Shown here: one piece after another, positions 383-3,189 of the stretch
Layout: every line of letters starts with the position of its first letter
Position numbering within the stretch: position 1 is the first letter of the stretch
Source: Meyerozyma guilliermondii
Lineage: Eukaryota
DNA length: 64,000 nucleotides
Assembly (NCBI GenBank): GCA_051546255.1
Contig: CP128817.1
Span: 1-64,000 of the forward strand
Direction of reading: 5' to 3'
The notes under the pieces: model-generated
What the model was told of the DNA's origin: nothing
Databases searched by the model: none
What the model saw: the letters and a program-made list of their open reading frames with translations, nothing else
Position numbers and translations under genes: made by a program

Positions 383-583
383 ATAAAATGGCTGCAAATT
401 CGCGAGGCTTTCTCTTATCAATACAAGTTCCATTTAATTTGAATGCCCAGTGGATTTTAGTCGATTACCAGCTCTTCAAGTAGCTTAGTTGCATTATTAT
501 AAGCTTCTAGATTAGAATCTCAGTAAGTGACCCATAGAGATCATTACAATGACTTGACAAGTTAGAATTTCATTATGTCAAGT
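383..583. repeat. Telomere-adjacent block, copy 1 (about 200 bp)
   Basis: Shares TAAAATGGCTGCAAATTCGCGAGGC, AATACAAGTTC, TGAATGCCC, GCTTAGTTGCATT, AAGCTTCTAGA and TACAATGACTTGACAAGTT, in the same order, with 2499-2730. Confidence 0.9.
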
Positions 584-638
584 TCATGACAAAATACAAA
601 CACTAAAGATAAACTTACTCAATTTCACTCACCATCTA

Positions 639-1064
639 CTACTTTAAGTATTTAATAAAGTAAATCAAAGAATCTTTGTAGATGTATAACTCTGTCACGC
701 AATACCAGATGAAAACCGCAATACATGGAATAAGGTGCATACAAAGAAACGTAATCAAGTTATTTTCAATCATGCTCCTTGAATTACAATATCGAATGGA
801 AGAAATTACGATGTCGATCCATATTCCAATACCAACCACCTGAAAAGCTGCATAAAAGAACCAGCCGTAACCCGGAATCTTTGCATCCTCATTTAATCCC
901 CGAAAGATGCTGGGCAGTACCCAGCCGCAACATAAGATGAAAAGAGTCAAAAAAGAACACCTCAAGTCCTGATCCGAGAACTTATAATCGGTTTCCAGAT
1001 ATTCGGCCATAGTGTCGTCAGTCATATTCTCCTCCATAGTATCTTCAGTCAATTGTCTCTCCAT
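639..1064 (-). CDS. Small multi-pass membrane protein, subtelomeric family member 1 (141 aa from first ATG)
   Basis: Acidic N-terminus followed by about 3 hydrophobic segments. GYGWFFYAAFQVVGIGIWIDIVISSIR aligns with DYSWFIILFCRTIFIILWINAVVASYR in 1718-2119. Confidence 0.6.
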   Translation of the reverse strand: MERQLTEDTMEENMTDDTMAEYLETDYKFSDQDLRCSFLTLFILCCGWVLPSIFRGLNEDAKIPGYGWFFYAAFQVVGIGIWIDIVISSIRYCNSRSMIENNLITFLCMHLIPCIAVFIWYCVTELYIYKDSLIYFIKYLK

Positions 1065-1717
1065 TTGTGATCGGATTAGGTGCACTGCGAAGCTCAGTTT
1101 ATAAGTCAACGTACAATCTGCTAAACCTAGAGTCGTGAAAAGAAGTTGTAGCTTCCGCAAGTCAAAGCACCTGAAAATGGCGCTGCGATAACTGATTCTG
1201 CTATTTTTACTCCCTATTTATCTTATACTTTCCGTTTCCATCATTCTTCTCAATTTTTTTCCTTATACTTTCTGTTCCCTTTTCTTTCATTTCTCAGGTA
1301 ATAGACAGAGTTCGCATGATTATCGCCAGACTTGAGAGGCTACCGAAAGTTGAGGCACATTGCTGCTGTTTTCGGCCCGCAGCATTGTGGTTTGTATTTG
1401 GGTCCTGATCCCGATCGTGCAAGAACAAAAGGTTATTGCCCCATGTCAATTGTAAAGTACATTAGTTGCCAAGCTTTTTCTGAGTCTGTTTTTCTTTCCG
1501 CTGTTTGTATCTTAATAAGGCCAAAGAACTTTGCCAACTTGCTATTGTAGTAGAGATGAATAGTAATAATCTAGAAGGATGTATCGTAAAAAAGCTCTTG
1601 CTTATAACTTCAATACTAGCATACCAAAATAATCTGGCTATCGATCCACGTTTTCCATGCTAGAAGACGAAAGAGCGAACAATTAGCTTGTGGATCGATG
1701 CATAACCCAGCATTATT

Positions 1718-2119
1718 TCATGAGTACCCGCCAGTGATTGTACTTCGAAGTAAGGTAAAATAATCAAATACAGTTGGATCCTGTGAATAGTAGCAGTGAA
1801 TGCAATCGAAAGTCAAGTACTTGAAGTTCCAACCAACAGCAATCACGTTGATTATAACATTTAATGGATCCCCACGTCGATAGGAAGCAACTACCGCATT
1901 TATCCAGAGTATAATAAATATCGTACGACAGAATAAAATGATAAACCAGCTATAATCCGAAATTTGATATTGTATTTCGAAGAATTCACGGAAAAAGTAC
2001 GGGCATCCATAAAGGAGTATATAACTCAAAACTCGTTTTATCTGTTTTATCCGTCTAAGGAGAATTTCGGCACGAGTTTCGGGCAAATTCTCCATTTGTG
2101 GTGTATTTGTATTTTCCAT
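1718..2119 (-). CDS. Small multi-pass membrane protein, subtelomeric family member 2 (133 aa)
   Basis: Intact ORF with hydrophobic segments. Shares CACAAATGGAGA near the start, and the W..W motif segment, with 639-1064. Confidence 0.6.
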   Translation of the reverse strand: MENTNTPQMENLPETRAEILLRRIKQIKRVLSYILLYGCPYFFREFFEIQYQISDYSWFIILFCRTIFIILWINAVVASYRRGDPLNVIINVIAVGWNFKYLTFDCIHCYYSQDPTVFDYFTLLRSTITGGYS

Positions 2120-2321
2120 GGCCACGATAATGGTTAAGAAACCGGTTCCGAAACGTAACGGTATGATTAGGGCTTACTTGATTGTTATCAAGTACTATAA
2201 TATTGTATAGAAGTTACGAATGCAGGAGTATTCGTACTTGGATACAATAAATAAACCAAACAGATTACGCTTGAAACTTTTTTTCTTAAGCGGGGGCTAT
2301 CCCATATTTATAGCCCGAGAG

Positions 2322-2415
2322 TTTTGCAGCCATGCGGAGTTAAATCCCCTTGATGCCACCGCGTTTTGCAGCCATGCGGAGTTATCGCCCCTTCCACCGC
2401 GTTAGAGCCATGCGG
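2322..2415. repeat. Short tandem repeat of about 40 bp with core TTTTGCAGCCATGCGGAGTTA (2 full copies plus 1 partial)
   Basis: Identical 21-mers at 2322 and 2364, partial AGCCATGCGG at 2406, and CCACCGCGTT repeated between them. Confidence 0.85.
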
Positions 2416-2481
2416 GGTCGGGGTTACTTCTCCGTGATAGATACACCCAATGTAGAAGATTGTTGCAATCAGGAAACTACA

Positions 2482-2730
2482 TCAGTACACCAGCGATATA
2501 AAATGGCTGCAAATTCGCGAGGCAGTTTTTCTTTATTAATACAAGTTCTAGTTTGCGCAAATACATTTATTGCTCAGTCGTCTGCTCAATAAATGTATTG
2601 AATGCCCGTGGGTTCTAGTCTACCAGGATCTAGTTCTAATCGCTTAGTTGCATTCACAAGCTTCTAGACTAGAATCCGTAATGGGCCAATCGAGTACAAT
2701 GACTTGACAAGTTGATTTCATCATGTCAAG
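2482..2730. repeat. Internal telomeric remnant (TCAGTACACCAG) plus telomere-adjacent block, copy 2
   Basis: About 1.5 telomere units at 2482-2493 immediately precede a diverged copy of 383-583. Confidence 0.9.
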
Positions 2731-2786
2731 ATATTGTTCTCTAAAGATGAAAACGAGCAATTATCGATAGTCAGAACTATCATTAT

Positions 2787-3189
2787 TCATGACACGCAGC
2801 TAACAATTGCCAATTGCAATAAAGGGACAATGCTAAATAAGGTTTGGTTCTGTGGTTGGAGGAATTCATTGCCAAACCACATGTCACAATGCACATACCA
2901 AAATAATAAGAGTTGAGGAATCTTTCCTACTCGCTCCCCACAATCACCCCACAACAATTTACTGTTATCCCCCATTAGCGACTGAAGCTCCGGACCAGAC
3001 AGAATCCGAAACTTTCAAAAGATTGGGAATACCATCTATCCTTGAAGGGCTACAGAAGCCAATATTACCGTTATATCCACCTACGCTCCAGCTTTCCAGA
3101 GTTTCGGCCAGAGTTTCGGCGGATTTATTATAGTCATTTCTTCCATTGGTGGTGTGGTCATTTCTCTCATTCGTGATCATTCCTCTCAT
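2787..3189 (-). pseudogene. Decayed third member of the small subtelomeric membrane-protein family
   Basis: Same position relative to block copy 2 as ORF 639-1064 has to copy 1. DNA GAGTTTCGGCCAGAGTTTCGGC...TCCATTGGTGGTGT resembles GAATTTCGGCACGAGTTTCGGGC...TCCATTTGTGGTGT of member 2 (AETLAETL vs PETRAEIL). Broken by stops and frameshifts. Confidence 0.5.

Follow-up and report, generated by a model that had tools for sequence, protein, structure and literature searches.

A probable telomeric outpost of a three-helix membrane-protein family, probably restricted to Meyerozyma, in a yeast of the Meyerozyma guilliermondii group

Among yeast sequences comparable to the chromosome end described here, Y' elements form extrachromosomal circles and vary in copy number between strains, and the wtf genes of S. 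pombe are multi-exon. In excerpts of published work, Y' elements are some 6 kb long and their tandem copies are spaced by perfect tracts (PMC10055226), and C. albicans YRF1 encodes a helicase that is 99.6%–100% identical at 10 of 16 ends (PMC10867151). The former source also describes SiRTAs, short internal telomere-like subtelomeric sequences where a new telomere can form (PMC10055226). With respect to small membrane proteins, excerpted accounts report positive selection in and between the membrane helices of DUP240/KTD1 (PMC9974470), and rapid substitution, repeat expansion and non-allelic gene conversion in the multi-copy wtf genes (PMC6526906). In M. guilliermondii, the G-strand telomere unit is ACTGGTGT, and Leu-rich ORFs and adhesins lie at chromosome ends; the excerpts of that paper, which cites Butler et al. 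2009 for gene families, make no mention of the genes described below (PMC12720209).

The window analysed here is the whole 64,000-nucleotide stretch at the left end (C3L) of contig C3, in a 10.66-Mb genome of 8 contigs from a yeast of the Meyerozyma guilliermondii group. With ORFs translated by table 12, its terminal part comprises the following features:

1–382, plus strand: terminal telomere array, C-strand (AGTACACC)n, from repeat analysis and the reported G-strand unit
383–585, plus strand: block copy 1, directly on the telomere, with the same junction as C8R (98%) and C3R (95%)
639–1064, minus strand: ORF A, 141 aa, clade A telomeric subfamily, with acidic N-terminal repeats and three predicted membrane helices (ORF, model and tree)
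1065–1290, minus strand: conserved A-gene upstream region that recurs at many dispersed loci (genome matches)
1718–2119, minus strand: ORF B, 133 aa, from clade B of the superfamily that includes ORF A, with its closest paralogue at C8R (35%)
2319–2425, no strand assigned: GC-rich degenerate short tandem with two TTTGCAGCCA motifs, upstream of ORF B (motif scan)
2457–2477, plus strand: flank of about 20 bp distal to the tract, common to C7R and C8:418k
2476–2493, plus strand: internal telomere-like tract, putative Rap1-type site, 16/18 match, 364 bp upstream of the ORF B start
2478–3897, no strand assigned: 1.4-kb segment, 92.7% identical to C6:9253–10653, where it is inverted (genome alignment)
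2498–2732, plus strand: long-form block copy 2, containing an inverted repeat of 40 bp (2560–2599); 92% identical to C6L and 76% to copy 1
2787 to about 3170, minus strand: broken, frameshifted clade-B gene with an MTTPP-type start (family HMM and DNA match)

The telomere consists of 45.8 copies of the 8-bp AGTACACC unit (17–382), a repeat present at all 16 chromosome ends of the genome; at 13 of them, sequence other than the 200-bp block adjoins it. The recurrence of this block within the window, put forward in the original prediction, was borne out: 383–582 matches 2498–2730 (E 4e-18) with 90% identity in the first 51 bp and 76% across 148 bp, the earlier start at 2499 being one base late. 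Copy 1 begins with ATAAAA-TGGCTGCAAA-TTCGCG. Its last ~40 bp contain a TTGACA...TGTCAA inverted repeat which is also found 3' of the family gene at C2:1843k, and thus probably represent the 3' flank of a gene. The genome contains at least 11 copies of the block, three on the telomere (C3L, C3R and C8R) and eight internal. The anticipated linkage to telomeres extends to other ends, with contact at 3 of 16. The copies at C6L and C8:418k are inverted relative to the nearest end, two copies are buried 93 and 108 kb inside C5, and a family gene follows the block in only five of the 11 cases. The three terminal blocks meet the telomere at the identical base and are 95%–98% alike. Moving inward from the telomere, identity between C3L and C8R per 100 bp runs 100, 100, 93, 86, 84 and 68%. 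Given the common junction base and this decay, the three telomere-block ends most likely share a single origin and have undergone distal gene conversion. A telomere-like tract of 1.5 to ~6.5 degenerate repeats is kept at seven of the eight internal copies; in the internal copy at C3R, the tract and the initial 26 bp are missing, the gap lying between two CTTATCA(A/G)TACA repeats. The tract side of the internal blocks carries the A-gene upstream region in 5/8 and the common 20-bp flank in 3/8. At the other side, homology begins repeatedly at window positions 591–607, just beyond the block, so block and gene are separate modules. The 200-bp block is a separate, non-coding module.

The interval between the two block copies had been taken for a 2.1-kb repeating unit; in fact, the stretch is never repeated as a unit in the genome. 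From the telomere-side block to the next block, the distance is 2.1 kb at C3L, 3.0 kb at C8R (genes A, B, A) and 0.86 kb at C3R (A), and the three telomere-block ends are 80%–84% identical overall. The 1.4-kb match to C6 terminates inside the telomere-like tract. Within this segment, a sugar-transporter gene (3430–3882) is represented in the window by its 3' end alone and is nearly complete on C6, making C6 the likely donor. The 20 bp distal to the tract are common to C7R and C8:418k, both devoid of such a unit; thus the tract junction predates the 2.1-kb piece, and the suggested fossil end with a new unit on top is a poor fit to C3L, though the tract itself might go back to an older fossil end. 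As proposed, the 3' end of a minus-strand family member follows each block, with stops at 639 and 2787, respectively 256 and 289 bp from the block starts. Both loci do belong to one family, but a third member, ORF B, lies between them, and the remnant is of clade B whereas ORF A is of clade A. The two halves of the region align only in the block and at the 5' ends of the genes.

The telomeric remnant noticed at 2482–2493 is real: TCAGTACACCAG is the sole such 12-mer in the window outside the telomere, and the perfect part of the tract at 2476–2493 spans 11 bp. Searching the genome with the tract pattern produced 24 matches, of which 5 are terminal and 19 internal; the control pattern produced 3. 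Eight internal tracts are within 800 bp of family genes, a ninth belongs to a block copy without a family gene, and the remaining 10 are at ordinary loci, mostly intergenic. Telomere-like tracts are enriched in the spacers of family clusters, with 4 of 15 placements family-linked once homologous flanks are merged (p ~2e-4, assuming that family spacers make up an estimated 2% of non-coding DNA). Variation among the tracts follows ACAYCMRTACAY, which we take to meet a Rap1-type consensus adapted from the S. cerevisiae site. According to excerpts of two reports, S. cerevisiae Rap1 is suited to bind the M. guilliermondii repeat (PMC12449055), and M. guilliermondii Rap1 has two Myb domains (PMC7857110). 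Judged from sequence, the internal tracts are probably Rap1-binding sites. By analogy, the tract may be a candidate Rap1-type cis element that is also able to seed telomere addition as SiRTAs do. It resembles SiRTAs and X-like elements in being a short internal telomere-like tract in a subtelomere; unlike for SiRTAs, healing would here be deduced from one junction common to three ends, and the tract is just 16–18 bp long. Three tracts sit between genes in the opposite orientation, which counts against the explanation favoured below, and the tract at C5:1050.6k, with ~6.5 degenerate 8-bp units, is compatible with a fossil telomere too. The telomerase RNA template was also considered as a source of the remnant; this template was not located. 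TGGCTGCAAA, which adjoins the tract, is a genome-wide, mainly non-coding motif, with 445 genome copies against 15 for its reversed control (which contains CpG, and whose count may be too low), and with 52 non-coding against 11 coding occurrences in the retrieved DNA. A literature search for TGGCTGCAAA returned primer noise only.

ORF A, ORF B and the broken gene belong to a family of three-helix membrane-protein loci. An HMM search of ~590 kb around matches yielded 65 segments that collapse into 60 loci, grouped in 15 clusters; this count is a lower bound, so the family has at least 60 loci. Thirteen of the 60 are within 12 kb of a telomere and the other 47 are far from telomeres. There are 53 ORFs of at least 100 aa from the first Met, and most frames are intact, with no introns needed for reading. 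The proteins are 105–280 aa in size, with three helices and N-terminal repeats that vary in length. A midpoint-rooted tree separates clade A (28) from clade B (25) at 100/99 support and places the four A genes that adjoin telomeres within groups of C6 and C5 genes. The two clades are interleaved in most clusters, and C3R has A genes without B. In the window, ORF B shares 29% identity with ORF A (BLASTP, E 2e-5), the family HMM recognizes the broken gene at 2787 (E 2e-6), whose DNA shares 69% identity with intact genes on C4 and C7, and the stretch 1040–1500 is matched 36 times across the genome. In the model of ORF A (pLDDT 70, pTM 0.48), an acidic helix at the N-terminus is accompanied by three others, which coincide with hydrophobic segments; a fold search with this model gave no match at E 0.001. 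ORF A has no Pfam match, and no Pfam family is common to two or more of the 13 members tested at E 0.1. An ESM Atlas search using a database homologue returned three unnamed clusters at 0.90 along with generic helical bundles, which we treat as leads only. Protein searches gave 49 and 30 matches, and those listed are close to family members of this genome. Two long, weak matches (P0068 and P0072) look like repeat noise, and there is no credible homologue outside the Meyerozyma group among the matches listed. One of the 49 matches bears a name, and this protein comes from M. guilliermondii; at least one family member is in NCBI as an uncharacterised protein. Since most database records are unnamed, the restriction of the family to Meyerozyma is something that we infer. 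A literature search turned up neither the family nor the block, a result that covers the excerpts of the papers concerned; the supplements of PMC12720209 (Fig. S2, subtelomeric ORFs) or Butler et al. 2009 could list the family.

The telomeric alleles are mosaics across public assemblies. The 54 public proteins comprise 42 distinct cores made of shuffled segments, and four-gamete conflicts affect 36 of 264 pairs of near sites and 734 of 1276 pairs of distant ones. Several mosaics are supported by 5–13 contigs each; short-read misassembly and sister species may contribute. Among the matches listed, 26 of 49 protein-match clusters are closest to telomeric A genes, which supplied 3 of the 13 queries.

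In addition, the family proteins appear to change faster than neutral DNA, as arms-race genes do. For 16 intact A genes, omega was 1.89 (2dL 26 against omega 1), and the comparison of M2a with M1a gave an LRT of 115 with 40% of sites at omega 3.7; in this site test, computed with custom code, the genes were chosen as intact, 87 of 167 columns were kept after removal of the N-terminal repeats, and branch lengths were scaled from M0. IQ-TREE yielded omega values of 1.6–2.1 under all six codon models and 0.99–2.9 in seven subgroups, and three separate segments gave 1.3, 3.0 and 1.8. The dN/dS of a control family was 0.07, a value from the one valid trio, as two of the three controls were invalid (4 columns; antisense frame). 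Pooled over 11 family pairs, differences at codon positions 1, 2 and 3 were 0.24, 0.20 and 0.16, whereas all five control pairs showed the reverse order, with position 3 differing roughly three to five times as much as position 1. By NG86, dN/dS exceeded 1 in only 10 of 23 close pairs. Moreover, the pooled flanks, many of them not homologous, differ by 0.25–0.28 against 0.24 at codon position 1, so constrained silent sites may contribute. A dN/dS above 1 could thus come partly from constrained silent sites, gene conversion or misalignment, and gene conversion can inflate site tests. An overlapping reading frame as the cause of the high dN/dS was rejected for ORF A, the ORF examined, as its antisense and shifted frames contain stops. 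On these sequence comparisons, the family appears to be under diversifying selection.

How the chromosome end was built admits several explanations. Similar to Y'/YRF1, some ends share the region, the ORF reads toward the telomere and telomere-like DNA lies on both sides. The original prediction accordingly proposed a Y'-like unit, and a non-autonomous version of it (tract, block and gene), spreading by telomere-repeat recombination and perhaps via circles, would account for the telomere-block-gene order at three ends, for the tracts as breakpoints and for the order block-gene-promoter-block at both C3R and C8R. However, the supposed unit measures 0.86, 2.1 or 3.0 kb with differing genes, is absent from the tip of 13 of the 16 ends and has no identical tandem copies, 6 of 11 blocks have no family gene behind them, two blocks have the inverse orientation and another two lie some 100 kb from an end, and 47 of 60 loci are non-telomeric. 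The proposal that the region carries small membrane proteins instead of a helicase is upheld: neither helicase nor reverse transcriptase was found in the 7 window ORFs or in 65 ORFs of at least 170 aa from the terminal 10 kb of the 15 other ends. A telomere-targeted retroelement was discarded on the same scan. We hold such a unit to be very unlikely. The Y'-like reading is largely refuted for this genome, and a repeated stretch at C3L as a new mobile telomere element does not stand. What survives of the proposed spread by recombination at telomere repeats is the tract as a recurrent recombination breakpoint, retained at 7 of 8 internal blocks; the Y'-like unit does not. As for the block itself, the tract is followed by TATAAAA at constant spacing in 7/7 internal copies, and single copies form hairpins, which would suit a structured non-coding RNA or a microprotein gene driven from tract and TATAAAA. 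Yet the two strands have consensus folding energies of just -1.7 and -2.6 kcal/mol, covariation supports 0/10 and 2/13 pairs, and a search of Rfam with the block gave no match. Furthermore, the ATG frame (16–56 aa) is out of register among 10 copies, leaving no conserved microprotein, and the TATA box of the three terminal copies is missing its T. An RNA or microprotein gene is thus highly improbable. In metagenomes, all 11 matches to block DNA cover the 20-bp pattern alone and were dismissed as chance.

A more serious alternative takes the internal tracts for fossil junctions, old telomeres capped by copied gene-bearing pieces, so that the family disperses from the ends and the tracts have no present role. 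The tracts do hold 1.5 to ~6.5 units in register, 5 of the 7 block tracts run in the telomere-like direction, homology breaks concentrate at the tract, and a TCAATACA motif in the block provides microhomology to the repeat. Nevertheless, tracts occur in several unrelated spacers 55 kb to >800 kb into the chromosomes, oriented either way with respect to the genes and twice beside TGGCTGCAAA in differing arrangements, about 10 ordinary loci carry similar tracts mostly between genes, and the telomeric genes are nested within inner ones in the tree. We therefore consider fossil junctions unlikely. The reading that we think probable is that ordinary subtelomeric recombination assembled the region, and that it represents the telomeric outpost of a Meyerozyma-restricted three-helix membrane-protein family undergoing birth-and-death evolution in its tandem clusters. 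In the corresponding model, tract and TGGCTGCAAA would constitute a protein-binding module for Rap1 and another general factor, normally 200–370 bp upstream of a family gene. An ancestral end may have broken in such an array and been healed by telomerase at the tract, yielding the order telomere-block-gene. The healed end would then have been copied to C3L, C3R and C8R, and kept alike through distal gene conversion. Finally, the second block could have been imported with the 1.4-kb piece from C6 by exchange at the tract.

Regarding function, the family is a member of neither DUP240/KTD1 nor wtf, and by analogy it may work most like one or the other. With DUP240/KTD1 it shares multi-copy small membrane proteins of one yeast lineage and a positive-selection signal in the membrane region, subject here to the silent-site caveats. 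DUP240 differs in having, in the excerpted account, ten members with two helices, against at least 60 loci with three helices and 105–280 aa here, and no homology to DUP240 was detected by Pfam (13 members, E 0.1) or among the protein matches listed. We tentatively suggest, at somewhat less than even odds, that the family could serve in defence, as a repertoire of proteins that counter yeast killer toxins or comparable antagonists; its alleles would be shuffled in the telomeric slot. Alternatively, its members might be wtf-like poison-antidote selfish genes, clades A and B (or long and short starts) taking the two roles. Like wtf, the family is large, dispersed, multi-copy and membrane-spanning, changes fast, bears N-terminal repeats that expand and contract and shows a gene-conversion signal, and A and B are interleaved in most clusters. 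In contrast to wtf, its frames are single and readable without introns while wtf genes are multi-exon, its spacers bear telomere-like tracts, with no link to LTRs noticed, sequence likeness to wtf is lacking in Pfam and among the protein matches listed, and A genes occur without B at C3R. Such a drive system is, on this balance, quite unlikely. Self-recognition or a relaxed function share the rest of the probability beside defence and wtf-like drive. Broader still, and rather doubtful, is the idea of a 60-gene, two-clade, Meyerozyma-unique system in genetic conflict (anti-toxin immunity, self-recognition or poison-antidote drive), which would be wired to Rap1 via spacer sites that regulate genes and seed chromosome ends, with the telomeric slot as a recombining diversity generator.

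In yeasts, large families of small membrane proteins whose dN/dS exceeds 1 have proved to be conflict genes, as with KTD1 (killer toxin) and wtf (spore killers). The present family is several times larger than DUP240 and unrelated to it in sequence, and it is found in a yeast of industry and biocontrol. It provides a defined gene set for questions of defence or cheating in the CTG clade, and the region itself offers a natural case of what we infer to be telomere healing at a promoter-like site.

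At the right end of C3, five variant repeats (TAGTACAC) lie between the block, a non-coding repeat of about 200 bp, and the perfect telomere (9530–9570 in the coordinates of stretch L021), which suggests that a mutated repeat was amplified locally. Among the 13 ends without a terminal block, two further classes of telomere-adjacent sequence were found within the first 100–700 bp inside the ends (L and R denote the left and right ends of contigs C1–C8):

First class: C1L, C4L, C5L, C6R, C7L and C7R
Second class: C1R, C2L, C4R, C5R and C8L

The first base is T at 14 of the 16 ends, often off the repeat. 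This starting T is probably a library artefact, and thus the match of window bases 1–12 to the internal telomere-like remnant (2482–2493) carries no meaning.

Further inward, the window harbors the following genes and ORFs:

3934–5742, minus strand: broken leucine-rich-repeat gene of an end-associated family
6252–7100, plus strand: 282-aa ORF
8390–10121, plus strand: MFS transporter with TRI12/Sugar_tr matches, split into two overlapping frames
10765–20445, minus strand: ALS-type adhesin of 3226 aa with 105-bp repeats, a known family

The transporter is presumably siderophore-transporter-like, and the adhesin has a paralogue at C3R. A Pfam search with the 282-aa ORF yielded no significant match. 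At nine or more ends, copies of the leucine-rich-repeat family, many of them broken, lie no further than about 17 kb from the tip; they are under weak purifying selection. PMC12720209 already mentions such genes at chromosome ends.

Across the 10.66-Mb genome, the motif TGGCTGCAAA (as well as TGGTTGCAAA) lies predominantly in non-coding DNA, with 445 copies versus 15 for the control, a reversed motif that contains CpG and whose count may be too low. It is probably the site of a general regulatory factor. At C1:1244.6k (L030:4590–4675), a 14-bp telomere match with a degenerate neighbour sits in a 1.2-kb spacer separating divergent genes, representing a candidate telomerase RNA template or a candidate Rap1 site; an Rfam search of this region returned no match. 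On C5 (~1049–1071k), 88–110 kb from the contig end, an array of 16 loci of the small three-helix membrane-protein family contains four or more telomere-like tracts, which between them face both ways. This array may represent an old subtelomere that has since been internalised.
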